Source of the DNA: Clostridia bacterium
Lineage (GTDB): Bacteria; Bacillota; Clostridia; Oscillospirales; CAG-382
DNA: 64,000 nucleotides
NCBI GenBank assembly: GCA_017397955.1
Contig: JAFQHL010000031.1
Span: 8,191 to 72,190 of the forward strand
Direction: 5' to 3'
Numbering within the stretch: the stretch's first letter is position 1; each line of letters opens with the position of its first letter. This document shows, piece by piece, positions 2,720-62,647 of the stretch. A model generated the notes under the pieces. That model saw only the letters and a program-made list of their open reading frames with translations, was not told where the DNA came from and did not search any database. A program made the position numbers and the translations under genes.

Positions 2720-4845
2720 CAGTTTTTTGCGGTAATTTTAAAATTTTCTTTGTCTTCTTCGCCCCAAAAGGCAAAAGCCTTGGTTAAGCCTTCGTCTTTA
2801 CTCGCCAATCTTGCGGCGTTGCGTTTCAGCATACGGCAAAGACTGCCGTGGCTTAGCCCTTTGGCACGCCAGCGGGCGGCGACAGCGGGCAAAGCCTCAG
2901 CATCGCCTTCGATACGCACGCCTTTTTGCAACAGCTCTTGCTTCAAATCCTTAAAACAGCCCTCTGCCACCGCCGCAAGCTCCTTTTCTCCTGCCGCCGC
3001 AAACATCACCGTTTCGTCTGCTGTCGCGGAAAGCTCCTTTATAACGGGGTCTGCCGCTTTTTCTGCTTTGGAGAAACCTGCCGTGCCTTCAGCACCTTTG
3101 CAAGCGGAAAGCACCAGCAAACAGCCCTTGAAGCTTATTTTCAGCCCGTTTCCGTCGCAAATCACCCCGTCCTCGCATATTTGGCGTATAAGGGATAACA
3201 GCTCACCTTCGGCTTTGTTTATATTGTCAAAAAACAACAGACAGCGCGGCTTTCTGCGTACCTTTTCCGTAAGAATGCCGCCTTCACCTCCTGCTGTGCC
3301 TATAAGTCGGGATACACCGTAGCTTCCTTTATAGTCTTCGGCGTCGAAACAGAAAAAACTGTCCTCGTTTCCAAAAGTAAGTGCCGCACATTCCCTTGCC
3401 AAACTGCGTTTTCCAACCCCTCTGTTGCCTATGAATAACAGCAAAAGCGGTAGTTTTAAAATCCCCGTACCGTATTCTTCAAGCAACTTCGCAACCTTAT
3501 ATACGGCTTCGTCTTGCCCGCGTATTTTTTCTTTAAGCAGTGCGGCGGTGTCCTCCCTTGTTCTTGCCTTTGCGGGTGCAATTCCCGTGTTTGCCTCCAA
3601 CGCCGCCTCTACATCGGTGCTTTCTACCGTGGGTACGGCTCTTTTTCCTGACCACATCATACGCCTTCGTGCCGCACTCTCGTCCATAAGGTCAATAGCT
3701 TTGTCGGGCAAGGACCGCTCTCCTACATATTTCATTGATAAATCCACAGCGGCCTCCAAAGCTTCATCGCTTATTATTACCCCGTGGTGCTCCTCATAGC
3801 GACGGCGCAAGCCCTTTAGTATACGCAGGCAGGCGTCGCGGTCAGGCTCTGTAAGCAACACGCATTGAAAACGCCGTTCCAAGGCTCCGTCCTTTTCTAT
3901 ATATTTTTTGTATTCCTTAAGGGTGGTTGCTCCCATAAGCCTTATTTCGCCCCGTGCCAGATAGGGCTTAAGGATATTAGATGCATCTATTGCGCCTTCC
4001 GCTGCGCCTGCACCCACAATAGAGTGTATCTCGTCGGCAAACAGAATAATGTCCTCTGCGCCTTTGGTTTCTTCTATGATGTTTTTCAGCTTTTCTTCAA
4101 ACTCCCCCCTGTATTTGGTTCCGGCTACCAGCGCGGGGATGTCAAGTACTATAAGACGCACTCCGCACAACGCTTCGGGTACCCGCCCTTCCGCTATGCG
4201 TAAAGCCAGGGACTCTGCCACCGCGGTTTTTCCTACTCCCGGCTCGCCTATAAGGCAAGGGTTGTTTTTGGTTCGTCTAAGCAGAATTTGTATAACCCTT
4301 TCTTCCTCTTTTTCTCTGCCTATCACAGGGTCAATCAGTCCTTTTGCCGCTTTTTCAGTCAGATCGTACCCGTGTTTGTCAAGCAGTGGAGTAGGTTTCT
4401 TTGGCTGCTTCGTAGCTTTGTACACGTATTCATCCTCCTTTGCAAGCTTTTGCGCCCTCTCATATATTCGAGGGGCGGAAACAAAGCTGTCTGCCAGCCG
4501 TTTTGCCGCACATTCCTCAGATATCAACACCAAAAGCAGGTCTCCGCAATCTGCTTTGCCGCCCTGCGCCTCTCGCGCGGCTTTCAGCAACAGCTTTTTC
4601 AGCTTAGGGGTCATATCCGTACTTTCTTTTGTTTCCCCCTGAAATTTTGGCTGTGCCTTAAGCTGCTTTCTTAAATATTGCGGTTTAAGCCCCAAATCGC
4701 AAAGCATATTGCCGCAGGGACTGTCACTTAGGGACAATGCCAGTAACAAATGCTCGGTCCCTACGTAAAAATCACCCAGCGCGGCGGCTTCTATAAATGC
4801 CGTATTTACTGCAATATGTGCCAAATTTGTAAACTTTTCGTTCAT
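2716..4845 (-). CDS. ClpC/ClpA-like AAA+ ATPase with Clp_N domain; second AAA domain degenerate
   Basis: GTEHLLLAL Clp_N; D1 [29 protein letters not shown] intact; D2 GNRGVGKR and FFDNINKA deviate from consensus. Confidence 0.85.
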
Positions 4846-5003
4846 ATTTTCCCTCCAAATGCTGTAAAAACATCTGTTTTCACAAGGATTTTGCCCTAAA
4901 ATAGAGGATTATATTTCCATTTTATTATCTTTTTGTAAAAAAGTTAACGGCGCTCTTCCATAAAAAGGTCTTTTGTGGTATAATCACGGTGAGGTGTTAT
5001 GCA

Positions 5004-5690
5004 ATGGGCTCGCAAAATAATATAAATAGGGGTTACTCCCCAAAAAAAACACATAATATTGCCCATGCAGGCGCACCTAAAAGGGTAAGAAGGCTTACTC
5101 CTGAGGAAATTGAGGAGCGTAGGCTTAAAGCCGCAGAGCAAAGGCGCGAGAAGCGTGAGACTTTTTTTGTTCGCTTTATCTTTGGCGTAGCGGTATATAT
5201 GCTGTGTTGCCTTATTATCTTCGGTTTTGCCGCATCCGTTTATCTCCGTACCACGGATATTGAGCTGGCAGAGCTGAATATTGTAGATGCAAAGGGTAAA
5301 ATTTTATACACGGCAGAGGATGAGGCGTTTATAATAAATAATGTGCCCTATGTTTCTGCAACAGGTCTTGCGGTGCTTTACGATTTTACTTTAGCGGGTG
5401 ACAAAACCAGGGTTTCCATGCACTTCCATAATGTTGACGAAAGTATATCTTTTACGAAGGATTCTACCGGTGTGTACATAAACGGTCAGCCCGTAAGGCT
5501 TACTGCACCTATTATTTTTACAGATGACTATTATATTCCGTTGGAATTGATTAGAAACTATTTTTTAGGCGTAACAATTATATACGACAGTGAAAAAGGG
5601 CTTGCAACACTTTCTGCGGATAAAGAAGCGTTTTCCCTTAAGCTTCATTCTCCCGTAGAAACAGAGCTGCCCAACAAACCGAAAGGATGA
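5004..5690 (+). CDS. Membrane-anchored protein, basic N-tail, one TM helix, copper-amine-oxidase-N/stalk-like C-terminal domain
   Basis: Hydrophobic segment FIFGVAVYMLCCLIIFGFAA; YINGQPVRLTAPII...YIPLE pattern; GAGGTG RBS before ATG 5004. Confidence 0.6.
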   Translation: MGSQNNINRGYSPKKTHNIAHAGAPKRVRRLTPEEIEERRLKAAEQRREKRETFFVRFIFGVAVYMLCCLIIFGFAASVYLRTTDIELAELNIVDAKGKILYTAEDEAFIINNVPYVSATGLAVLYDFTLAGDKTRVSMHFHNVDESISFTKDSTGVYINGQPVRLTAPIIFTDDYYIPLELIRNYFLGVTIIYDSEKGLATLSADKEAFSLKLHSPVETELPNKPKG

Positions 5691-5700
5691 AATTGTTTTT

Positions 5701-7227
5701 ATGAAACCGAGAAAGACAGCAATGCTTCTTGCGGCGGCAATGATTATAGTTACCGTTATTGCGGTAGTGCCTTCCGTAAAAGTACAGGCTTCTTATGTGG
5801 ATGACTTTTTGGCAACCGTAGGTCCTATGTGTACCAACGATATGAGGGATAACCATATTTTGGCATCCTTTACCTTGGCACAGGCTATTTGGGAAAGCGG
5901 TTGGGGTCGCAGTACCTTGGCAACACAGGCAAATAACCTGTTTGGTATCCGCGCCTACAGCACTTGGGATGGCAAGGTTTTTGACAGAAACGAGTGCGTG
6001 CTTTACAACAGCTGGTCACATCTTGTTGCTACAAAGGGTGATGCGTATGTCAAAAACTACTCTTTGTCATTCTGGCGCGCATACGATAGCTGGCAGGACA
6101 GCGTTAATGACCACAGCGGCTTGTTCAACCGTATGTCCATATACGAAAACCTAAGGGGTAATTACGATTATAAATCCTGTGCTACCCTTATCGTTTTGGA
6201 TGGGTATTGCAGTGAGACGGAGTATACCGATTGTCTTATTACTCTTATCGAAAGCTATGACCTGGAGCAGTATAATTACGATTTTGGCGATAACGGTGGC
6301 AACACCACTCAGCCCGAAGACGGCAATAACGAGGTTTCCGGCAACGGCAGCAGCGTAAGCCTTCAGCCCGCAAAGCTTTATATGGAAACAGGCACCGCTT
6401 ATCCTCTCAGTTTTACCGTTACTCCCAAGGGTGCGGAATGTACAGTTACCAGCAGTAACCCCGCAGTTGCTTCTGTAAACGGCAATATACTTACCGCTGT
6501 TTCAGCCGGTAGTACTACTGTTACCCTCGCTTCCGGCTCTCTTTCCGTAAGCTGTGATGTAACTGTTGCCGATAACTACGGCGGCATAGTTGCCGACGGC
6601 GTGTATGTTTTGTGCACGGTTGCAACCGGCACCGTTACCATTCCCGCTGAGGCAACAAGCATCGGTAAGGATGCTTTTCGCGGTAGCGGCGTAACTAAGG
6701 TTATCGTGGGCAACGGCATTACCTCTGTGGAAGACGGCGCATTCAGCGGTATGGGCGGCGGCTTTACTCTTTGCTCTTACGGCAACAGCATTGTTTCTGA
6801 TTACGCGCTGATGAACGCAATCGCCCACATCAATATGAGCACCGGTTGGGTTTTGGATTCCGCAGGCGCACTTATAACGGGCATATCTCTCTACACAACG
6901 GCAGAACTCATAAGTACCTATTACAATGCCGAAGGTGTGGATGTTGATTTAAGTAACAGCACAGGCGAAGCTCTTGGCAATACCGAATATGTAGGCACAG
7001 GATGTGTTGTTACCGTTGGCGGCGTTAGCTACAGCGCGGTAGTTAAGGGTGATACTGACGGTGACGGCATAACCTCCACCTCCGACCTGCTTAACCTTAA
7101 AGGCTACCTCGGCGGAGATAACGGTTATTTGCCTGCCCGCACTTTCCGCAAAGCGGCAGACTTTAACGGCGACGAAAGAATTACTACCGCAGACTATCTT
7201 GCAATCTTCCGTTCCTTCACCGCATAA
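5701..7227 (+). CDS. Secreted GH73 glucosaminidase with Ig-like (Big_2), short LRR and C-terminal dockerin-like domains
   Basis: Signal peptide; LAQAIWESGWG...NNLFGI and RAYDSWQDS GH73 motifs; SSNPAVASV Ig motif; GDTDGDGIT...ADFNGDERITTAD duplicated Ca-loop. Confidence 0.85.
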   Translation: MKPRKTAMLLAAAMIIVTVIAVVPSVKVQASYVDDFLATVGPMCTNDMRDNHILASFTLAQAIWESGWGRSTLATQANNLFGIRAYSTWDGKVFDRNECVLYNSWSHLVATKGDAYVKNYSLSFWRAYDSWQDSVNDHSGLFNRMSIYENLRGNYDYKSCATLIVLDGYCSETEYTDCLITLIESYDLEQYNYDFGDNGGNTTQPEDGNNEVSGNGSSVSLQPAKLYMETGTAYPLSFTVTPKGAECTVTSSNPAVASVNGNILTAVSAGSTTVTLASGSLSVSCDVTVADNYGGIVADGVYVLCTVATGTVTIPAEATSIGKDAFRGSGVTKVIVGNGITSVEDGAFSGMGGGFTLCSYGNSIVSDYALMNAIAHINMSTGWVLDSAGALITGISLYTTAELISTYYNAEGVDVDLSNSTGEALGNTEYVGTGCVVTVGGVSYSAVVKGDTDGDGITSTSDLLNLKGYLGGDNGYLPARTFRKAADFNGDERITTADYLAIFRSFTA

Positions 7228-7241
7228 TTTAAACAAAATTG

Positions 7242-7274
7242 AACACCGCAGACCTTATGGTTTGCGGTGTTTTT
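7242..7274 (+). terminator. Intrinsic terminator, probably bidirectional
   Basis: AACACCGCAGACC-TTAT-GGTTTGCGGTGTT plus T-tract between convergent genes. Confidence 0.8.
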
Positions 7275-7285
7275 GTGTGTTTGCT

Positions 7286-7468
7286 TTATTCTATCTCAAT
7301 ATTATCTACCCCGTGCTCCAATATTATGTTTATCAGCTCATTGCGGGAATAGTTACTTTCTGCCGCAATGCTGTCCAGCTTTGCAAGGGTGCTTTCTTTA
7401 ATTCGTACCGTGATGGTTCTGTGCCCATCCTCCCCACGGCGCTTGATTTTTAATGTCTCGTTTTTCAT
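7286..7468 (-). CDS. Ribbon-helix-helix (CopG-like) DNA-binding protein
   Basis: TITVRI...LAKLDSIA...SRNELIN RHH pattern, 60 aa. Confidence 0.8.
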   Translation of the reverse strand: MKNETLKIKRRGEDGHRTITVRIKESTLAKLDSIAAESNYSRNELINIILEHGVDNIEIE

Positions 7469-7519
7469 ATTACACGCCCTTATATATTATAATACAATTA
7501 TTTATAATATAATTATACC

Positions 7520-7548
7520 TTGACAAAAATATAGTTATATATTATAAT
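7520..7548 (+). promoter_or_regulatory. Consensus sigma-A promoter for the LRR/dockerin gene
   Basis: TTGACA-17 bp-TATAAT in a very AT-rich divergent intergenic region. Confidence 0.75.
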
Positions 7549-7605
7549 TTAATATAATAAGTGATATTGTTTATGATATCAAGTGTGAAAGAGAGGGTAT
7601 TTTTC

Positions 7606-10332
7606 ATGAAAAAACTAACAGCACTTTTTCTTGCCCTAGCCCTGTGCTTAGGGCTGTGTTCGTTTACCGCTTCGGGTGTGAATTCTGCAGGGGATTTAAC
7701 GCCTGCGGCAAGTATTATACCGGTTGTCGAACCTAAAGTATACAATGGCACTTGCGGTGATGTTCTCAACTGGAGTCTTGATGCTGAAACCGGTGTTCTT
7801 AATATAACAGGAACCGGCATGATGCTAGATTACTCAGCTTCAGATTTTTTTCCTGAACTTAACGCTCCTTGGTATAGCTATAAAAGTTATATTAAAACCG
7901 TAAATGTTGACGACGGCGTTACTACTATTGGGAGTGGTGCGTTCTACAACTGCTCCTCCCTTACAAGCGTAACCATTCCCGATAGTGTCACTGATATTGG
8001 GTTCGAAGCGTTTTACAACTGCTCCTCCCTTACAAGCGTAACCATTGGGGACAGCGTTACTTCTATTGGGGAATATGCGTTCCGCGGCTGCTCTTCCCTT
8101 ACAAGCATAACCATTGGGGACAGCGTTGCTTCTATTGGTGAAGATGCGTTCTACGACTGCTCTTCCCTTACAAGCGTACATATAAGCGATATAGCTGCGT
8201 GGTGTGGAATTTACTATGGTAGTTATTATTCTACCCCCTTATGTATGGGTGCAAATCTGTACTTAAACGGCGATTTGATAACAGCGCTTGTTATCCCCGA
8301 TGGCGTAACAACGATTGGGAACTATGCGTTCTATAAATGCGATTCTCTTACAAGCATAACCATTCCCGATAGTGTCACTGATATTGGGATCGAAGCGTTC
8401 TACAACTGCTCCTCCCTTACAAGCGTAACCATTGGGGACAGCGTTGCTTCTTTTGGTGGCGGTACGTTTTATGATTGTTCTTCTCTTACAAGCATAACCA
8501 TCCCCGACAGCGTTACTTATATTGCGCAAGGTGCGTTTTACGGTTGTACTGCCCTTCGAACTGTATATTATACAGGAAATGCCGAGGAATGGGCAGATAT
8601 TAGCATAGGTGCAGATAACACTTCTTTGAAAAGCGCAAATATAATATTTAACTATTGCGTAGAAGACGAATCTTCTGAAGAGAGCGTTGCGGACGTCTCT
8701 TCTGATGACGAGCGTCTTGAAGATTCATCATCTGAGTTGTGGGAAACTTCAGATGAACCTGTTGAAGAGACTTTCGAAGAACAAAGCGAAGACGACAGCT
8801 TTGTTGCAACGGTAGATGTACTTTACGGTGACGTAAACGGCGATGGGAATATCAACAGCCTTGATGCTGCGCAGGTCCTTAAGCACGATGCACAGCTTAT
8901 AATCCTTGATGGTGACGGGATTGTGGCTGCGGACGTTAATGCCGACGGCGAGGTTAACAGCCTTGATGCGGCGCAGATACTTAAGTACGACGCACAGCTT
9001 ATCGAAAGCTTTCCGGCGGGCGACTGTTTTGCAGGAAGTGATGAAACGAGCCAACCCTCCAACAACAGCGAAAATGAAAACGTAGAGGTGTTGCCGTCCA
9101 TAGAGGCAGAAATAGGCGAATATATCACCTTTGGCAGCTATGAGCAGGATAATAATACAGCTAACGGTAAGGAAGCCATAGAATGGCTTGTTCTTGATAA
9201 AAAAGATGGCAGTATGCTTGTGATAAGCAAGTACGGTTTGGATGGCGGAGCGTATTTTTCTGTTTATGATGATGGCAATTGGAAAAACAGCAATGTCAGA
9301 GCCCGTCTTAATAACTCATTTATACAAGATGCTTTTTCAGAAACAGAGCAATACAGGCTTATTACGGTAACAACAAATCCCGACGCCAATCCTGAATATG
9401 ATAGTGATCAAGGCTCTTCGACGCAGGATAGAGTGTTTTTATTGAGCTCCGTAGAAGCAAATCGATATTTTGACTCTGATGCATCAAGGGCGTGCTTACC
9501 TACTGCGTATGCGTTAAGCAAAGGCGTATATGAATGTTATAGCGGCGATTATAAAGGTTACTGCTTTTGGTGGTTGCGTACTGTTGGCAGTGACGAGTGG
9601 GATGCTGCATGCGTTGATGCGGACGGTACCATAGACAATCATGGCGATTCCCAAAGGTCTTACCAGTATGCAATCCGTCCAGCTATGTGGATTTCTACAG
9701 GTGAAATAGAAATAGAGATAGTTCCGGAAGATAGCAGCGAAAGCGAAGGTTATTCTGGCGGTGCAGAAATAGGCGAATATATCACTTTTGGCAGTTACGA
9801 GCAGGATAATAATACAGCTAACGGTAAGGAAGCCATAGAGTGGTTAGTTCTTGATAAAAAAGATGGCAGAATGCTTGTTACAAGTAAATACCTGCTTGAT
9901 GTACAGCCCTTCCATTCTTCTTATAGCGAAACAACTTGGGAGCACAGTGCATTGCGTCAGTGGATGAACAACGATTTCTATAACATCGCTTTTAATTCGG
10001 CAGAAAAAGCAAAAATACCTACGGTAACGGCAATAGCAGATGTAAACGAGTTTGTTTTTACCGTCACATCGGGTAATGACACGCAGGATAAACTGTTCTG
10101 CTTGAACAAGACGGAATTTATACAATATTTCCCTGACCGTAATTCCAGCGCCTGTTCCCCTACTCCGTATGCGGAAGCCTTGGGAACAAGGTCATTCTGG
10201 TGGTTACGCACTTCCGGCGGCACCCGCAGAATGGCGGTTTATGTAGAGACGGACGGCGATATCAATCCCGGCGGCACTATAGTAAGTAATGATTGTTATA
10301 TTCGCCCGGCTATGTGGATAGAAATCGATTGA
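7606..10332 (+). CDS. Secreted BspA-type (LRR_5) leucine-rich repeat protein with central dockerin and two DUF6273-like domains
   Basis: Signal peptide MKKLTALF...; CSSLTSVTIPDSVTxIGxxAF repeats; GDVNGDGNINSLDA...ADVNADGEVNSLDA; two ITFGSYEQD...IEWLVL...WWLRT...RPAMWI domains. Confidence 0.88.
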   Translation: MKKLTALFLALALCLGLCSFTASGVNSAGDLTPAASIIPVVEPKVYNGTCGDVLNWSLDAETGVLNITGTGMMLDYSASDFFPELNAPWYSYKSYIKTVNVDDGVTTIGSGAFYNCSSLTSVTIPDSVTDIGFEAFYNCSSLTSVTIGDSVTSIGEYAFRGCSSLTSITIGDSVASIGEDAFYDCSSLTSVHISDIAAWCGIYYGSYYSTPLCMGANLYLNGDLITALVIPDGVTTIGNYAFYKCDSLTSITIPDSVTDIGIEAFYNCSSLTSVTIGDSVASFGGGTFYDCSSLTSITIPDSVTYIAQGAFYGCTALRTVYYTGNAEEWADISIGADNTSLKSANIIFNYCVEDESSEESVADVSSDDERLEDSSSELWETSDEPVEETFEEQSEDDSFVATVDVLYGDVNGDGNINSLDAAQVLKHDAQLIILDGDGIVAADVNADGEVNSLDAAQILKYDAQLIESFPAGDCFAGSDETSQPSNNSENENVEVLPSIEAEIGEYITFGSYEQDNNTANGKEAIEWLVLDKKDGSMLVISKYGLDGGAYFSVYDDGNWKNSNVRARLNNSFIQDAFSETEQYRLITVTTNPDANPEYDSDQGSSTQDRVFLLSSVEANRYFDSDASRACLPTAYALSKGVYECYSGDYKGYCFWWLRTVGSDEWDAACVDADGTIDNHGDSQRSYQYAIRPAMWISTGEIEIEIVPEDSSESEGYSGGAEIGEYITFGSYEQDNNTANGKEAIEWLVLDKKDGRMLVTSKYLLDVQPFHSSYSETTWEHSALRQWMNNDFYNIAFNSAEKAKIPTVTAIADVNEFVFTVTSGNDTQDKLFCLNKTEFIQYFPDRNSSACSPTPYAEALGTRSFWWLRTSGGTRRMAVYVETDGDINPGGTIVSNDCYIRPAMWIEID

Positions 10333-57555: not shown

Positions 57556-58725
57556 TTACTTAACCTTCTTAGCAACTACAACGCCTGCCATGGAAACAAC
57601 TGCGAGAACTGCAAATACTGCAAGACCTGCGTCGCCGGTGGAAGGAGTAGAGTTGTTGCCGGGCTGTTCAACGGAAGTGTTGTCGTCTTCAGATTCAACA
57701 GGAGCGTTTTCGGAAGGATCGTCAACGGAAACGTCTTCGGAAGGATCGTCAACGGAAACGTCTTCGGAAGGATCGTCAACAGAAACGTCTTCGGAAGGAT
57801 CGTCAACGGAAACGTCTTCGGAAGGATCGTCAACAGAAACGTCTTCGGAAGGATCGTCAACGGAAACGTCTTCGGAAGGATCGTCAACGGGATCGGATTC
57901 GGAAGGATCGTCAACGGGATCGGATTCGGAAGGATCGTCAACGGGATCGGATTCGGAAGGATCGTCAACGGGCTCAGATTCGGAAGGATCGTTTACAGGA
58001 GGCTGTTCAGAAACGGGTTCGCCGCCGTAAACTTCGATTTCGTCGAACTGAAGAATGAAGCCTCTGTTGGAACCAGAACCGTTGTCATCACAATAGAAAT
58101 TGCCGTATTCAGCTTCGGGGCAAGAAGTGTCAAGAATTACTCTGATATAGGAAGCGTTAACGGTTGCAAAGGAAGCAGTGATATCGAAAATCATATCTCT
58201 GTTGTCAGCGGGAAGGTTTGTACCATAGTTAACGTTGCCCTGTTCGGAGTTAGCAACAACATCAAATCTCTTGGTGTAGTCAACTGCGGACCAGTTTGAA
58301 CCGTCAGAAGAAACTTCAACACCAACAAGGTTGCCTATACGGTTGCCGTAAATCTTAACAACGCGAACAACTACAGAAGAGATGCCCTTTTCTGCGCCAA
58401 GATTGAAGGTGTAGGTGTAGTTTCTTAAAGAACCCTTCATTTCAAGGGAGATACCAGCAGCAGCGTCCTTGATTTTGGATTCTTCGGTACCAACACGAAC
58501 CTTACCATCGGTAACCTGACCGGACCAAAGTTCCATAGTAGAGCCCTCTGTAGGAGGATTGCTGTGGTCACCAAGGTTGGGACTGTAGTATTCAAGAACT
58601 TCGTCGCTGGATACGAGGGTATAGGATTTACCTGCAACGAGGTTGGTGTCAGCTGCGCTTGCGGAAACTGCGAAGCAGCAAGCTACCATTACGGATGCGA
58701 GAAGAAATGCGATAAGCTTTTTCAT
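57556..58725 (-). CDS. Secreted wall-anchored protein: beta-sandwich (discoidin/CBM-like) domain, acidic repeat stalk, PSTGD sorting signal
   Basis: Signal peptide ending ASA; EVSSDGSNW...YIRV...DEIEVYG; DDPSE repeats; PSTGD-TM-KKVK. Confidence 0.8.
   Translation of the reverse strand: MKKLIAFLLASVMVACCFAVSASAADTNLVAGKSYTLVSSDEVLEYYSPNLGDHSNPPTEGSTMELWSGQVTDGKVRVGTEESKIKDAAAGISLEMKGSLRNYTYTFNLGAEKGISSVVVRVVKIYGNRIGNLVGVEVSSDGSNWSAVDYTKRFDVVANSEQGNVNYGTNLPADNRDMIFDITASFATVNASYIRVILDTSCPEAEYGNFYCDDNGSGSNRGFILQFDEIEVYGGEPVSEQPPVNDPSESEPVDDPSESDPVDDPSESDPVDDPSESDPVDDPSEDVSVDDPSEDVSVDDPSEDVSVDDPSEDVSVDDPSEDVSVDDPSEDVSVDDPSENAPVESEDDNTSVEQPGNNSTPSTGDAGLAVFAVLAVVSMAGVVVAKKVK
57709..57996. repeat. 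Coding tandem repeat, 27-bp unit, about 10.7 copies
   Basis: TTCGGAAGGATCGTCAACGGAAACGTC-type x6 then ...GGGATCGGA-type x4 plus a partial unit. Confidence 0.95.
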
Positions 58726-58893: not shown

Positions 58894-59541
58894 TTACAGT
58901 AAAATTTTGTCAAGTTCCGAAAAATTTGCCGCTACGGCAGCGGCGCCTGTTTCTGTAAGCTCGTCCCTGAATATGCTGCCGTTAACTATCCCCACACAGG
59001 GTATACCGTTATCCGCCGCGCCTTCTATGTCATAACAGCGGTCTCCTATCATAACACAATCTTTCGCGCTTGCACCTGCCATTTCCATGGCGCGGGCTAC
59101 TATGGCGGCTTTGCTCAGGTGCGCATCGCTGAAGCTTGCGGCAGAGATATGGCTGAAATATTTGTCCACCTTTAGGTATTCCAAAACGGTTTTTACAAAA
59201 GGCAAGGGCTTTGAGGATGCTATAAGCAACACTTTGCCCTGTTGCACTGCTTTTTCAAAAAACTCTGCTGCGCCTGCATACAGACTGTTTTGGTATATTC
59301 CTTTTGCTTTGTAATGCTCTCTGTAAAGTTTTATGGTTTCCTCCACTCGTTCTTCTTCTATACCCGCATAGGTCATAAAGGAATATTTAAGCGGCGGACC
59401 TAAAAATTTTGCCATTGTTTTGCTGTCCGGCACAGGCACGCCTTGTTTTTCCATGGCGTAGGTAGCGGATGCTATAACACCGGGGGCAGAGTCGGTAACC
59501 GTACCGTCCAGGTCAAAAAGCAAATATTTTTTGTTTTTCAT
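58894..59541 (-). CDS. HAD-superfamily hydrolase (5'-nucleotidase/phosphoglycolate phosphatase-like)
   Basis: FDLDGTVTDS, GPPL, SSKP, IGDR; start at ATG 59541. Confidence 0.9.
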   Translation of the reverse strand: MKNKKYLLFDLDGTVTDSAPGVIASATYAMEKQGVPVPDSKTMAKFLGPPLKYSFMTYAGIEEERVEETIKLYREHYKAKGIYQNSLYAGAAEFFEKAVQQGKVLLIASSKPLPFVKTVLEYLKVDKYFSHISAASFSDAHLSKAAIVARAMEMAGASAKDCVMIGDRCYDIEGAADNGIPCVGIVNGSIFRDELTETGAAAVAANFSELDKILL

Positions 59542-59653
59542 AAAAAACGCACCTCCAAACATTATAATTATAACTCAAAACCGCGGTGATTACAATAAGG
59601 TGCTTGCAAATTTTGCGTTTTGGCTGTATAATAACTGTAAAGGCGGTGCTTTT

Positions 59654-60877
59654 ATGAAAAGAGTTTGCGTAATAGGCGGCGGCGCGGCAGGGATGATGGC
59701 GGCATATTTTGCGGCTTGCGGCGGTGCGGCGGTAACCCTTATAGAAAAGAACGATTTTTGCGGTAAAAAAATAAATATAACGGGCAAGGGGCGTTGCAAT
59801 GTGACAAATCTTTGCGACGTGGCGGAGTTTATTAAAAATGTGCCCACAAACCCCCGTTTTCTGTACAAAGCTTTGAACAATCTTAGCCCCGAGGACACTA
59901 TGGCGTTGTTTGAGGGCTTTGGCGTGCCCTTGAAGGTGGAGCGCGGCAGGAGAGTGTTCCCCGTGAGTGACAAGGCGGCGGATATATCGGCGGCGCTGAA
60001 AAACGCTTGCGCCGATGCGGGCGTTAAAATCCTCCACGGAAAAGCGCAAAGTATACAGATAAGCGAAGGCGCCGTTGTCGGGGTGAGTCTGCAAGGTGGC
60101 AGGACAATCAAATGTGAAAGCGTGGTTGTTGCCACGGGCGGTGCATCTTATCCCCGCACGGGCAGCGACGGCGACGGCTATCGCTTCGCACAGTCTGCAG
60201 GGCATACCGTAACGCCGCTGAGTCCGTCCTTGGTACCGCTTGTAACCAAAGAGCCGTGGTGTGCCGAATGTATGGGGCTTTCCCTCAAAAACGTTAACCT
60301 AAGCTTTTACAGGGACAGCAAGTTGCTGTACGGAGAGCAAGGGGAAATGCTGTTTACTCATTTTGGCATAAGCGGTCCGCTGGTGCTTTCCGCTTCTTCG
60401 CATCTGGGCGATTGTGACGGGGTAGAGGGTAGAATAGACCTTAAGCCCGCACTGGACAGCGAAACGCTGGATAAGCGCATACTGCGGGATTTCGGTGAGG
60501 CGAAGAATAAGGATTTTGCCAACAGCCTTGGTGCGCTTCTGCCCCAAAAGCTTATACCCGTGGTGGTGCGCCAAAGCGGTATTGACCCACACAAAAAGGT
60601 TAATTCCGTTACTAAAGAGGAAAGGCGCGCCCTTGCGGAGCTTATAAAGGGCTTAAAGCTGACCGTAACGGGTAAGCGACCGATTGACGAAGCCATTGTT
60701 ACCGCCGGCGGTGTTTCGGTTAAAGAAATCAACCCGTCTACTATGGAATCTAAGCTGGTAAGCGGCTTGTTCTTTGCAGGCGAGGTTATAGACGTGGACG
60801 CTTACACGGGCGGATATAATCTGCAAATAGCCTTTTCTACGGGTGCCTTGGCAGGCGAAAACGCGGCATTTGAATAG
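59654..60877 (+). CDS. HI0933/BaiN (YhiN) family flavoprotein
   Basis: GGGAAG, TGKGRCNVTN, ATGGASYP, FTHFGISGP, TAGGV, TGGYNLQ. Confidence 0.93.
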   Translation: MKRVCVIGGGAAGMMAAYFAACGGAAVTLIEKNDFCGKKINITGKGRCNVTNLCDVAEFIKNVPTNPRFLYKALNNLSPEDTMALFEGFGVPLKVERGRRVFPVSDKAADISAALKNACADAGVKILHGKAQSIQISEGAVVGVSLQGGRTIKCESVVVATGGASYPRTGSDGDGYRFAQSAGHTVTPLSPSLVPLVTKEPWCAECMGLSLKNVNLSFYRDSKLLYGEQGEMLFTHFGISGPLVLSASSHLGDCDGVEGRIDLKPALDSETLDKRILRDFGEAKNKDFANSLGALLPQKLIPVVVRQSGIDPHKKVNSVTKEERRALAELIKGLKLTVTGKRPIDEAIVTAGGVSVKEINPSTMESKLVSGLFFAGEVIDVDAYTGGYNLQIAFSTGALAGENAAFE

Positions 60878-60885
60878 ATAAAACA

Positions 60886-60910
60886 AAACGGGGCTGCAAA
60901 AAGCAGCCCC
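60886..60910. terminator. GC-rich hairpin after the flavoprotein gene (T-tract on the minus strand)
   Basis: AAAAC-GGGGCTGC-AAAAA-GCAGCCCC. Confidence 0.6.
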
Positions 60911-61034
60911 AACACTTTAATTATAGCGCAACTTGCGGCAAAAAGTCAATATAAAATCGTAGCCTTTTGGGCGTATTTGCCAATATTCTGCTCTTTGCAC
61001 AAAAACTTTTTATTAAATTTGTATAAAATGTGTA

Positions 61035-61063
61035 TTGAAAACGGGCTAAAACTGTGTTATTAT
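61035..61063 (+). promoter_or_regulatory. Sigma-A promoter, unit 1
   Basis: TTGAAA-17 bp-TATTAT with TGn extension; conserved in unit 2. Confidence 0.75.
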
Positions 61064-61347
61064 AAAGGCACAGGAAGGGTGAGTCCAATGTACACAAAAA
61101 GACAAAGCCCCAAAGTAACAGGCAGGTAGTTGCCGCCGCCCATGGCAGGATAGCCAAATAAAGTTGTTAGGCGGTGCGCTTGTTACAACGAACGGGGCGG
61201 TAAGATGTATTAACATCGCTTGGGAAGCTTTCTTAGAATTGCCGACAGTTTTTTCTTACTTAAAAGAATGTTTAACCAAAGGTTAAAATGTGGGCGGCAT
61301 TACAAGCGGACAGATAGCGGTGTAAGCAGTAGAAAGAGAGGTAACCA

Positions 61348-61380
61348 ATGAAGTTAGATAACAAGACAGAAATGAAATGA
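61348..61380 (+). CDS. Putative 10-aa micropeptide MKLDNKTEMK
   Basis: AGAAAGAGAGGTAACCA-ATG RBS; frame, length and residues conserved in copy 2. Confidence 0.5.
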   Translation: MKLDNKTEMK

Positions 61381-61427
61381 CCCTTGGCTGCGGAACAATG
61401 GAGGCAGTCAAGGGTCATTTCATTTTT
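61370..61427 (+). terminator. Long-stem terminator, unit 1
   Basis: 22-bp stem AAATGAAATGACCCTTGGCTGC / GCAGTCAAGGGTCATTTCATTT plus T-tract. Confidence 0.85.
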
Positions 61428-61617
61428 GCTGTAAAAGCGGAAAAATCCGATAAAAAACAAAAGCGACCTGCACACAAATGTGAACAAGCGCCCAACACTT
61501 TAAGTATAACATAAGCTATGGCAAAAAGTCAATACATAATTGCAGGTTTTAGGATGTTTTGACTAATGTTCTGCCCTTTGCACAAAAACTTTTTATTAAC
61601 TTTGTATAAAACGTGCA

Positions 61618-61646
61618 TTGAAAAATGGCAAAAGCTGTGTTATTAT
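61618..61646 (+). promoter_or_regulatory. Sigma-A promoter, unit 2
   Basis: TTGAAA-17 bp-TATTAT with TGn extension. Confidence 0.75.
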
Positions 61647-61940
61647 AGAGGCACAGGAAGGGTGAGTCCAATGTACACAAAAAGACAGAACCCCAAAGTA
61701 ACAGTCAGGTAGTTGCCGCCGCCCGTGGCAGGATGTCCAAATAAAGTTGTTTAGGCGGCAAGCTTGTTACAGTAAACGGGGCGGTAAGATGTATTTACAC
61801 CGTTTGGCGTTTTTAATAGTTTACGTGTTGTCGATACTTTTTCATGTATAAGAAATATTTTCAAAGGTTAAAATAGATTTGCGGCAATGTAAACAAGTAA
61901 AAGACAAAAACGGTGCAAACCACAGAAAGTGAGGTAACCA

Positions 61941-61973
61941 ATGATGCTGGATATCAAAAATGAACTGAAATAA
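61941..61973 (+). CDS. Putative 10-aa micropeptide MMLDIKNELK
   Basis: AGAAAGTGAGGTAACCA-ATG RBS; homologous to 61348-61380. Confidence 0.5.
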   Translation: MMLDIKNELK

Positions 61974-62020
61974 CCCTTGATTGCGATAATGATAAAGCAA
62001 TCAAGGGTTATTTCTTTTTT
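61967..62020 (+). terminator. Long-stem terminator, unit 2
   Basis: 18-bp perfect stem GAAATAACCCTTGATTGC / GCAATCAAGGGTTATTTC plus TTTTTT. Confidence 0.87.
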
Positions 62021-62113
62021 GCGGCAATTTAATTATCCCGTAAGCCTATGGACTTTACGGAAGCTTAAATATAAAAATAGAGGAGCCGCAGCCCCTCTAT
62101 ATTTTTTGCAAAC

Positions 62114-62647
62114 TTAATAGTTTTCTTTTCTCATTTCAAAGAAGCTTTGAGGATGTGCACAAACGGGGCACATTGCAGGAGCTTTTTTGCCTATTACTAA
62201 ATGACCGCAGTTGCGGCATTCCCACATAATTTCCTCGCTCTTTTCAAACACAGCCTGCATATCCACATTGTTAAGCAGTGCGCGGTAGCGTTCTTCGTGA
62301 GATTTTTCTATAGCGGCAACCATGCGGAACTGCGCGGCAAGCGCGGTAAAGCCTTCTTCTTCCGCATCCTTGGCAAAACGGTCGTACATATCTGTCCACT
62401 CGTAGTTTTCACCTTCTGCGGCGTGAAGCAGATTCTCGGAGGTGTTGCCCAGCTCACCAAGTGCCTTGAACCAAAGTTTAGCGTGCTCTTTTTCGTTATC
62501 AGCTGTTTTTTGGAAAATCTCTGCTATTTGTTCATAGCCTTCTTTTTTTGCAACTGAGGCAAAATAGGTATACTTGTTTCTTGCCTGACTTTCGCCTGCA
62601 AACGCTTCCCATAAGTTCTTTTCTGTTTTTGTACCTTTAAGTTCCAT
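62114..62647 (-). CDS. rbr: Rubrerythrin
   Basis: [28 protein letters not shown]...CPVC. Confidence 0.96.

Follow-up and report, generated by a model that had tools for sequence, protein, structure and literature searches.

An apparently undescribed RNA gene with very short reading frames, present in two tandem copies and shared by many gut Clostridia

Several kinds of small bacterial transcription units resemble the locus described here in part. Dual-function small RNAs and small-peptide mRNAs, e.g., SR1/SR1P of B. subtilis, RNAIII/hld of S. aureus, and SgrS/SgrT and Spot 42/SpfP of E. coli, are generally short stand-alone transcripts that have their own promoter and intrinsic terminator, encode a small peptide and carry conserved RNA structure. 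The locus has these elements, with translation of the small ORF inferred, but its peptide is only 8–10 residues, against what appears to be 15 or more in those examples. It also has one to four additional 2–3 codon ORFs at the 5' end, and it shows no sequence or Rfam relationship to them. The ribosome-binding 5' stabilisers of Bacillus mRNAs (the STAB-SD of cryIIIA, and the ermC and aprE leaders) appear to place a strong Shine-Dalgarno (SD)-like sequence with extended complementarity to the 16S 3' tail within a few bases of the 5' end. A similar arrangement is predicted here, but the SD is followed by an AUG and a minimal ORF with a conserved in-frame stop, the module is repeated in arrays, and the complementarity is split (AGAAAGG, then GUGA, then UCC with a bulge). 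The bar minigenes of phage lambda, which appear to be two-codon ORFs that cause peptidyl-tRNA drop-off, have a comparable SD, AUG, 1–3 sense codons and stop. The modules described here are chromosomal, conserved across a bacterial class, arrayed and joined to a longer conserved ORF, and there is no evidence of drop-off or toxicity.

The heptapeptide gene of microcin C, mccA, appears to be another very short ORF that is followed immediately by an intrinsic terminator hairpin. However, the C-terminal residue of the peptides reported here is mostly Lys, and not the Asn or Asp that appears to be needed for adenylation, and there is no conserved neighboring gene and hence no mccB-like partner; the flanking ORFs were clustered against each other and not annotated individually. 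Leader-peptide transcription attenuators similarly have a short ORF that overlaps the 5' arm of a terminator, but here there is no regulated gene downstream, a second terminator usually follows, and the neighbors vary. Divergently arranged type I toxin-antitoxin loci, such as tisB/istR-1, zor/orz and shoB/ohsC, appear to consist of a small-ORF mRNA with a small divergent transcription unit just upstream, and tandem duplication and patchy distribution are shared with the locus. The peptides predicted here are hydrophilic and too short, and no complementarity was detected between the two RNAs.

Two tandem units in the window

The window is a 64,000 nt stretch of DNA from a Clostridia bacterium (Oscillospirales, CAG-382; assembly GCA_017397955.1, contig JAFQHL010000031.1, positions 8,191 to 72,190). 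Positions 60906–61427 and 61489–62020 represent two diverged copies of one transcription unit at an offset of 583 bp. These are the only two matches in this genome, both by BLAST and by nhmmer with family profiles. The two copies align over 550 columns and the longest identical run is 39 nt. The features are as follows.

60889..60911 (-): hairpin followed by a T-run (9 pairs, then TTTTGTTTTA), the predicted terminator of the tiny divergent transcript of copy 1
60906..60951 (-): conserved divergent element of copy 1, a sigma-70-type promoter (TTGACT-18-TATAAT; 11 of 12 consensus matches at 60949..60920) whose predicted transcript starts near GUGUUGGGG and runs straight into the hairpin at 60889–60911
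61035..61063 (+): main promoter of copy 1, TTGAAA, 17 nt, TG-n-TATTAT (extended -10), with a start predicted near 61069–61071
61073..61129 (+): 5' module of copy 1, SD-like AGGAAGGGTGAGTCC, then a 13-codon ORF (61088–61129, MYTKRQSPKVTGR and stop)
61130..61330 (+): genus-specific middle region of copy 1, with conserved stems and the internal hairpin TTCTT-ACTTAA-AAGAA at 61253–61268
61331..61380 (+): 3' module of copy 1, SD AGAAAGAGAGGT and micro-ORF 61348–61380 (MKLDNKTEMK and stop)
61374..61427 (+): terminator T1 of copy 1, a 17-bp core stem of 61374–61390 paired with 61405–61421, followed by a T-run; the stop codon (61378–61380) lies inside the left arm
61489..61534 (-): conserved divergent element of copy 2, a promoter TTGACT-18-TATACT with TG (61532..61503, 10 of 12 matches)
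61618..61646 (+): main promoter of copy 2, TTGAAA, 17 nt, TG-n-TATTAT, with a start predicted near 61652–61654
61656..61712 (+): 5' module of copy 2, SD-like sequence, then a 13-codon ORF (61671–61712, MYTKRQNPKVTVR and stop)
61713..61923 (+): genus-specific middle region of copy 2, with a degenerate internal hairpin
61924..61973 (+): 3' module of copy 2, SD AGAAAGTGAGGT and micro-ORF 61941–61973 (MMLDIKNELK and stop)
61967..62020 (+): terminator T1 of copy 2, a core stem of 61967–61983 paired with 61998–62014, followed by a T-run; the stop codon (61971–61973) lies inside the left arm
62077..62100 (strand not assigned): hairpin with T-runs on both strands between copy 2 and the convergent rubrerythrin gene (listed on the minus strand; the plus strand reads ...CCTCTATATTTTTTGC), which could act as a back-up terminator (T2) for copy 2

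The initial annotation had proposed a tandem pair of unannotated units with a promoter, a highly conserved 5' region of about 150 nt, an RBS with a short ORF and a covarying terminator, and every one of these elements is present at the positions given. The region has 10 promoter-like sites against 3.1 +/- 1.8 in shuffled sequences. Each copy has AGAAAG[A/T]GAGGT followed by an ORF of 10 sense codons plus stop. The two terminators were not listed by a simple terminator scan because its loop limit is 8 nt and these loops are 14 nt. The initial annotation did not include the second small ORF at the 5' end of each copy, nor did it recognize that the conserved stretch upstream of each main promoter is a promoter on the opposite strand. 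Its view that both paralogs are under selection is supported by the coding-type substitution pattern of the small ORF and the covariation of the terminator, and an undescribed dual-function RNA or peptide system remains a fair label. However, the 5' region of about 150 nt is specific to this genus and is not the conserved core. The family-wide RNA structure is limited to one internal hairpin and the terminator. A riboregulated peptide, also suggested, has not been shown, and no alternative pairing that is conserved was found.

Assembled contigs from RNA libraries of two studies cover 61112–61388 (1 difference) and 61693–61947 (2 differences), i.e., the interior of both copies, although such contigs cannot show starts, ends or strand. 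No RNA contig lay on the HI0933-like gene (60300–60947), on the spacer between the copies (61434–61595) or on 62001–62081, while a DNA run covers these regions; missing cover in contigs is not evidence. The contig ends near 61693–61695 and 61934–61947 coincide with sequence shared by the two copies and by relatives, and probably reflect assembly breaks and not RNA ends. The very high depth at 61272–61433 sums related organisms and is not a measure of expression.

Conservation of the unit across Clostridia

The unit belongs to a large family found in many Oscillospirales genomes, cultured species included, and in other orders of the class. Carriers include Flintibacter, Oscillibacter, Hominicoprocola and Ruminococcus bicirculans. 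The distribution is patchy, with 23 of 151 genomes of the order and 13 of 151 of the class sample matching the 3' module. There were no matches to any Rfam 15 family (including 6S, raiA, ROOL, OLE, T-box, tmRNA and Weinberg motifs) at gathering score in the whole window, and none on the units in 17 diverse loci. At E<=10 on 60850–62120 only spurious low scores appeared, such as snoRNA and miRNA models, the best at 23.7 bits against a cut-off of 80. Literature searches for the peptide strings and for taxon plus RNA terms found nothing relevant, with the limitation that the supplementary candidate lists of human-microbiome structured-RNA surveys (PMC8040213) were not part of the comparison.

Of 180 matches to the 5' motif in 149 loci, 158 have an SD, a 6–12 codon ORF and a hairpin at the stop within 1.1 kb, which gives 121 distinct units. 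Parts shared across the family are an extended -10 promoter, one to four 5' modules, a lineage-specific middle of 0–500 nt, a second strong SD with an 8–10 codon ORF, M(M)LD[I/N/T]K..., and a terminator whose stem contains the stop codon. The promoter and the first ~30 transcribed bases are conserved in relatives. Each 5' module is a very strong, split SD sequence, then AUG, 1–3 sense codons and a stop (MYR or MYK). The ORFs have 4 or fewer codons in 145 of 162 modules, with more than 20 different tiny peptides that all keep an in-frame stop, and the same holds in 5 of 5 units from other orders; the window copies, with 13 codons, are an exception. Modules are repeated 2–4 times at 41–52 nt or about 99 nt spacing in 27 of 121 units. 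The module is conserved beyond what an SD needs, including its spacer (GUGAGUCC or GUGAUACC before AUG), and exact 21-mers recur across eight families of the order. Two variants, GGUGAGUCC and GGUGAUACC, both read as the complement of the 16S tail GGAUCACC with one extra base, and the upstream AGAAAGG pairs with CCUUUCU. In other orders the 5' and 3' modules share the same RBS type, AGAAAGAGAGGU..CCAAUG.

The duplexes of the SD with the 16S tail are strong. The family median is -15.9 kcal/mol for the 5' module and -13.7 kcal/mol for the 3' module, and only 2.5% and 5.7% of 946 long ORFs of this genome are as strong. The 5' SD of the window copies is only average in strength (-11.1 kcal/mol, 25th percentile), but the 3' SD of copy 1 has -13.8 kcal/mol, which is reached by only about 5% of these ORFs.

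Comparison of the 3' ORF over 119 units shows a substitution pattern of the coding type. Met is ATG in 113. Leu is kept in 113 through four codons (TTA 84, TTG 14, CTG 13, CTA 2), and the six exceptions are Ile, Val or Thr. Asp is present in 114 and Glu in 5, and Lys in 116 (AAG 90, AAA 26). Position 4 varies among Ile (63), Asn (31), Thr (18) and Pro (6), but almost always as the codon form A-N-pyrimidine, which looks partly like a nucleotide-level constraint. Nine of the 158 ORFs have a different N-terminus, such as MIEPK.., MTDPIHAG, MAVPIHAG or VVDPN...

The terminator stem has 95.8% of cells paired and compensatory changes in 15 of 17 pairs, reached by 0 of 500 shuffles; slid controls give 27–51% paired. 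The stop codon is inside the left arm of T1 in the window and in the 51-sequence alignment. A second terminator-like site follows T1 in 74 of 115 units, against 10 in shuffles.

The middle region is replaced or missing across the family. Minimal units measure about 122 nt from the 5' motif to the end of the terminator hairpin and consist of little more than the two modules. In this genus CCCC/GGGG, GUAACAGGC/GCUUGUUAC and CACCGU/ACGGUG are kept in both paralog types and frame a replaceable insert. An internal hairpin with a CUUA loop is found in 44 of 121 units against 5.3 in shuffles, at a distance of 59–96 nt from the 3' SD, and its stems covary. Its arms covary while the 3' SD stays constant, and a role as an SD-sequestering switch was rejected. 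Pairing of GGU..CC with GG..ACC between the 5' and 3' parts is predicted in this genus, but the pairs are invariant there and the 3' partner sequence is different in other lineages, so this pairing was not adopted. Pairing of a 5' AAGGGU with the ACCCUU of the terminator is, by eye, not kept in Flintibacter-type or R. bicirculans units.

About 155 nt upstream lies the conserved divergent promoter that runs straight into a terminator, which predicts an RNA of about 41 nt. By pattern matching, the element lies 148–166 nt upstream of the 5' motif in 48 of 117 units, against 0 in shuffles, and 67 of 74 upstream elements are followed by a hairpin plus T-run on the minus strand. A search with nhmmer and the family element hits the genome of the window only at the two positions listed above. 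Repeated TTTG[C/T]A[C/T]AAAA-like words were seen by eye between the divergent promoters, and no factor could be named for them.

Neighboring genes are not conserved. The 252 flanking ORFs fall into clusters of at most 15, in mixed orientations, and a cis-regulatory role for neighbors was rejected on this basis. Where the next gene is co-directional, a terminator and a new promoter lie in between.

Possible roles of the unit

The reading that is tentatively favored, at somewhat less than even confidence, is that each copy is a stand-alone, highly expressed, ribosome-stabilised micro-mRNA whose product is the conserved peptide. In this model, transcription starts at an extended -10 sigma-A-type promoter, and within about 5–10 nt of the predicted 5' end ribosomes bind a very strong SD and translate a minimal ORF of 2–3 codons in most of the family and 13 in this genus. 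The bound ribosome would protect the 5' end, as in the Bacillus stabilisers. At the 3' end the second strong SD would drive the 8–10 codon ORF, whose first five residues, M-L-D-(I/N/T)-K, are under amino-acid-level selection, and the peptide or its nascent chain would be the functional product. Since the stop codon sits inside the terminator stem, a translating ribosome would melt the hairpin, which would explain why a second terminator usually follows; after release the hairpin would re-form and protect the 3' end. Translation, stabilisation and any activity of the peptide are inferred; there is no direct evidence of translation and none of transcript ends. In addition, a peptide of 8–10 residues with no export signal has few precedents as an effector, and the extended conservation of the 5' module, the internal hairpin and the divergent promoter-terminator are not explained by a simple peptide gene. 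If the model holds, the peptide would be among the shortest conserved chromosomal coding sequences known, and the unit is a natural, conserved example of arrayed 2–3 codon ORFs in a gene family invisible to gene callers and to Rfam.

It is possible, although doubtful, that the RNA itself is the effector and the peptides are by-products. The array of near-identical initiation regions (two to five per RNA, with extended but interrupted complementarity to the 16S 3' tail) would capture or report on initiating ribosomes, or titrate a protein that recognises such sites, as CsrB-type sponges do. The repetition of the 5' module and its conservation as nucleic acid well beyond an ordinary SD are in line with this, but a pure decoy would not need the amino-acid-level conservation seen through synonymous Leu and Lys codons, no partner protein is known, a gene in one or two copies is unlikely to titrate ribosomes, and the motif does not appear to fit a CsrA site, which is probably a GGA in a hairpin loop. 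A more far-reaching form of this idea, considered unlikely but not excluded, is a new class of riboregulator, an abundant RNA whose split SD sites pair with both ends of the 16S 3' tail but skip its core. It would capture, park or gauge initiating ribosomes as a sensor or buffer of translation capacity, with the MLDIK frame read into the terminator as the read-out and the fixed-distance divergent mini-unit tuning transcription of the main RNA. A trans-acting base-pairing sRNA, with the variable middle as the regulatory part and the mini-ORFs and terminator as a stabilising chassis, is also unlikely. The constant ends, the internal hairpin at a fixed distance and the replaceable insert would fit, but minimal units in Flintibacter-type genomes have only about 47 nt from the start of the 5' motif to the 3' SD and lack the internal hairpin, and the best-conserved parts are the ones inferred to be translated.

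Three other readings are considered very unlikely. A conditional terminator, in which translation of the micro-ORF, perhaps stalled by a ligand or a drug, decides between stopping at T1 and reading through to a downstream gene or antisense into the convergent neighbor (rubrerythrin here), has the geometry of a leader-peptide attenuator, and in this genus and in the neighboring genus the next gene is convergent. However, downstream genes differ between lineages and lie in either orientation, co-directional neighbors have their own promoter, a second terminator is common, and no conserved antiterminator pairing was seen. A selfish or addiction-type module related to type I toxin-antitoxin loci is suggested by the divergent promoter, the patchy distribution and tandem duplications in several lineages, the window among them. 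The peptides are nevertheless rich in D, K, E, N, S and Q, unlike known type I toxins, and the predicted divergent RNA consists almost entirely of its terminator hairpin. Its duplex energy with its own main RNA is no better than with unrelated or shuffled ones (medians -27.3, -26.6 and -26.4 kcal/mol, p = 0.28), although duplex prediction on long RNAs is a crude test. The unit is also rare in viral contigs, with about 2 real units among 7 motif hits in the collection searched. Lastly, the RNA might be a decoy or remnant derived from the 5' end of serS that titrates a factor acting on the serS start region, as seryl-tRNA synthetase begins MLDIK in this genome and MLDIK or MLDMK in four other carriers. 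By a rough estimate, a five-residue match to some protein's N-terminus in a genome of about 1,800 genes has a chance of a few percent, and there is no T-box or other Rfam match at serS. In 4 of 4 genomes tested whose micro-ORF has diverged (MTDPIHAG, VVDPNTEQK, and MIEPK.. twice), SerRS still begins MLDIK or MLDMK, so the two do not co-vary.

Organization of the two copies

The 1.2-kb gap between an HI0933-like flavoprotein gene and a rubrerythrin gene holds two diverged copies of one module that are 583 bp apart. The longest identical run between them is 39 nt. Each copy has a TTGAAA-17-TATTAT promoter with an upstream TG, a purine-rich SD-like sequence a few bases after the predicted start that is followed by a 13-codon ORF, a middle part of about 200 nt, a second SD (AGAAAG[A/T]GAGGT) with a 10-codon ORF, and a long hairpin plus T-run whose left arm contains the stop codon. 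The positions are as follows.

59531-60877, plus strand, HI0933-like flavoprotein gene
60949-60920, divergent promoter of copy 1, TTGACT-18-TATAAT
61088-61129, 13-codon 5' ORF of copy 1
61253-61268, internal hairpin of copy 1
61348-61380, 10-codon 3' ORF of copy 1, MKLDNKTEMK
61374-61427, long hairpin plus T-run (terminator) of copy 1
61532-61503, divergent promoter of copy 2, TTGACT-18-TATACT
61671-61712, 13-codon 5' ORF of copy 2
61941-61973, 10-codon 3' ORF of copy 2, MMLDIKNELK
61967-62020, long hairpin plus T-run (terminator) of copy 2
62114-62647, minus strand, rubrerythrin gene

The initial annotation, which described two diverged copies of one module, each with a promoter, a short ORF with its RBS and a long terminator, is therefore correct. 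These are the only two copies in the 1.9-Mb genome, which is 91% complete, as determined by BLAST and by nhmmer with family profiles. Elsewhere in the window, positions 57556-58725 on the minus strand represent a 389-aa ORF with no Pfam family at E<=0.001.

Family membership and distribution

A BLAST search of the 164 species genomes of the same family shows matches in 42, seven of which have E above 0.001 and are probably noise. Most matches cover only the promoter and the first ~30 transcribed bases, but a repeat of the search shows that the 3' SD, ORF and terminator are also kept, while the middle differs. The records include Oscillibacter valericigenes, Flintibacter faecis, Hominicoprocola fusiformis, Ruminococcus bicirculans, Lawsonibacter, and many Acutalibacteraceae and Oscillospiraceae MAGs. 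Two loci, a Patescibacteria record and a Faecalimonas record, look like chance hits. Of 180 matches to the 5' motif (3 or fewer mismatches), 158 have an SD, a 6-12 codon ORF and a hairpin at the stop within 1.1 kb; most of the 22 misses are truncated loci. Removal of duplicates leaves 121 distinct units, which measure 122 to 629 nt from the 5' motif to the end of the hairpin, with a median of 396. The shortest units, from Flintibacter, Hominicoprocola and relatives, have only about 47 nt from the start of the 5' motif to the 3' SD. The two modules are therefore the core.

The strict 5' 21-mer (2 or fewer mismatches) is found in 20 of 301 genomes sampled from the order, in 8 of 26 families, and a reversed-pattern control gave 0. 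An exact 16-mer gave only chance-level hits outside the order, i.e., 4 in a 401-genome sample of the class that held only about 15 genomes of the window's own order, where about 3 are expected by an estimate (reversed control 0). A covariance model of the 3' module (model R1, built from 51 sequences) reaches further. In the order it matched 23 of 151 genomes at E<=0.001, 17 of which have a full-length match at E<=1e-10. These include families where the 5' 21-mer had not been found, one with 6 of 8 genomes. In a class-wide sample it matched 13 of 151 genomes; eleven of these lie outside the order, and all eleven have E<=1.1e-10. Inspection of those loci reveals the whole architecture again, with 5' module variants (GGTGATACC[A/G]ATG, or AGAAAGAGAGGT..CCAATG) and mini-ORFs MFQK, MFR, MY, MNR, MRK, MRI, MR, MKR and MYK, each followed by a stop. 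The family is thus patchy but spread across Clostridia.

Tandem or nearby second copies arose more than once: in the window's genus, in the loci L121 and L038/L127, and in genome G317, which belongs to another order (contig C10, positions 828-1513, locus L179). The spacing of 568 nt in G317 matches the 583-nt tandem pair in the window. The unit is rare in viral contigs; the viral contig collection gave 7 motif hits, about 2 of them real units. A different element is present in two viral contigs (L156 and L161). It reads GGGGGTGAGTCCAATG TAC TAA (mini-ORF MY and a stop) and is preceded about 40 nt upstream by a near-perfect inverted copy (GGATTCACC in L156, GGACTCACC in L161) that could sequester the SD in a hairpin. 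There is no MLDIK ORF downstream of it.

There is no Rfam 15 match at gathering score in the window and none on the units in 17 diverse loci, and at E<=10 only spurious matches appear. Full-text literature searches for the peptide strings and for taxon plus RNA terms found nothing relevant, although one survey of candidate structured RNAs in human microbiomes lists thousands of motifs, including 250 palindromic ones that are mostly terminators (PMC8040213), and an overlap with an unnamed candidate there cannot be excluded.

Coding pattern, initiation sites and secondary structure

A comparison of 119 units aligned on the acidic residue shows a coding-type pattern in the 3' ORF. Met is ATG in 113. 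The next residue is Leu in 113, through four codons (TTA 84, TTG 14, CTG 13, CTA 2), and the other six are Ile, Val or Thr. This is followed by Asp in 114 and Glu in 5, by Ile (63), Asn (31), Thr (18) or Pro (6) at position 4, and by Lys in 116 (AAG 90, AAA 26). Changes at the first and third positions of the Leu codon that maintain Leu are the signature of selection on the amino acid. However, position 4 is nearly always A-N-pyrimidine, which hints at a nucleotide-level constraint as well. The genomes are related, so these counts are not independent events. Nine of the 158 ORFs have other N-termini (MIEPK.., MVEPK.., VVDPN.., MTDPIHAG, MAVPIHAG and one doubtful case).

Of 162 5' modules, 145 carry ORFs of 4 or fewer codons (MYR 48, MYK 37, MY 13, VFM 8 and more than 15 other forms), and the in-frame stop is kept while the codon before it varies. 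The window's genus is the exception with 13 codons, and there the ORF overlaps conserved stems. Twenty-seven of 121 units have 2-4 modules in tandem, at 41-52 nt or about 99 nt spacing. The 16S 3' tail of a carrier reads GGAUCACCUCCUUUCU. Predicted duplexes with it have a family median of -15.9 kcal/mol for the 5' module and -13.7 kcal/mol for the 3' module, and only 2.5% and 5.7% of 946 long ORFs of this genome are as strong. The window's own 5' sites are weaker (-11.1 kcal/mol, 25th percentile) and its 3' sites reach -13.8 kcal/mol. By visual inspection, AGAAAGG pairs with the last seven bases of the tail, and GUGA(G)UCC or GUGAU(A)CC pairs with GGAUCAC with one bulged base. The CCUCC core is partly skipped. 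The 3' SD, AGAAAG-A-GAGGU, reads as the full complement with one extra A. This "split" design is a reading of the sequences only. A short word, GGAATC[T/C], recurs 3-4 nt before the AGAAAGAGAGG of the 3' SD in many lineages (columns ~5-12 of the alignment of 3' modules).

The terminator stem is strongly supported. In 51 sequences, 95.8% of cells pair and 15 of 17 pairs show compensatory changes (109 cells). None of 500 shuffles reached this, and slid controls gave 27-51% pairing. A second terminator-like site follows within 130 nt in 74 of 115 units, against 10 in shuffled sequence, but a stricter test that required perfect stems found only 25 of 116. An internal hairpin with a CUUA-containing loop, e.g., UUCUC-ACUUAC-GAGAA, GUCCCG-CUUA-CGGGAU or GUUUCA-CCUA-UGAAAC, is present in 44 of 121 units, against 5.3 expected. 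It lies 59-96 nt before the 3' SD in all but one, and its stems covary. Copy 1 has this hairpin at positions 61253-61268, whereas in copy 2 it is degenerate. Within the window's genus, further stems are maintained in both paralog types around a replaceable insert, although the alignment has only 8 sequences and few compensatory changes. Single-sequence folds are more stable than shuffles (z = -5.5 and -4.0), largely because of the terminator.

The conserved stretch at the start of the interval delimited in the initial annotation is a promoter on the other strand (60949-60920 and, for copy 2, 61532-61503). On the plus strand it reads hairpin-CCCAACA..TATA..-N17-AGTCAAT. By a strict pattern it lies 148-166 nt before the 5' motif in 48 of 117 units, against 0 in shuffles. 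A profile built from those finds it in 74 of 115 units, and in the own genome only at the two window sites. In 67 of those 74, the minus-strand transcript would run at once into a hairpin plus T-run, which gives a predicted RNA with a median length of 41 nt. No complementarity between this RNA and the main RNA was found beyond that seen with unrelated or shuffled RNAs. The element could represent a tiny RNA, a partner promoter acting through supercoiling or occupancy, or an insulator against read-in. Between the two divergent promoters (60952-61034 and 61535-61617, and the same position in loci L166-L178) there are, by visual inspection, two similar words, roughly TTTG[C/T]A[C/T]AAAA, about two helical turns apart, and a TTCTG word. 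These may be an operator.

Genomic context and possible function

The nearest flanking ORFs of 137 units (252 ORFs) fall into clusters of at most 15 members, in either orientation, and synteny holds only within genera. Where the next gene is co-directional, the terminator of the unit, a second terminator and a new promoter lie in between. The unit is therefore not a leader of a neighboring gene. In one complete Oscillospiraceae chromosome (locus L059) the unit, at positions 2549-2950, lies about 1.4 kb upstream of an rRNA operon (16S, two tRNAs, 23S; positions 4382-8000). In another genome (locus L063, positions 3600-3753) the Rfam scan found a glmS ribozyme about 2.8 kb from the unit, which is ordinary. 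Contigs assembled from RNA libraries of two studies cover 61112-61388 (277 nt, 1 difference), 61695-61947 (2 differences), 61693-61938 and 61662-61934. One contig in each of two runs joins 61095 to 61331, as expected from relatives that share the ends but differ in the middle. Such contigs cannot show strand, ends or level.

The unit is a real, conserved locus that is present in RNA libraries and matches nothing in Rfam 15 or in the literature searched. It appears to represent a new family of small translated RNAs with an unusual architecture, whose function is unknown. The constant features are two or more very strong translation-initiation sites, reading frames kept minimal at the 5' end, a peptide-level constraint on the last frame, and a terminator that the last ribosome would have to unwind. 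These are tentatively interpreted as a ribosome-protected micro-mRNA whose product is the M(M)LD[I/N/T]K... peptide, with translation, stabilization and any activity of the peptide being inferred. However, the 5' module is conserved beyond ordinary SD needs and occurs in arrays, and there are an internal hairpin and a divergent mini-unit. These keep alive a second, less likely reading, in which the RNA itself is the effector through ribosomes or a binding protein. A base-pairing sRNA is improbable, and a conditional terminator, a type I toxin-antitoxin-like module and a serS-derived decoy are each very unlikely.

With respect to serS, the N-terminus of seryl-tRNA synthetase does not co-vary with the micro-ORF in the four divergent cases tested. 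The coincidence between the two is real: the synthetase begins MLDIK in these genomes (own genome, contig C34, locus L151:1483-1530, and loci L152-L155 from other genomes, with MLDMK in one genome), which is the same five residues as the conserved start of the micro-ORF.
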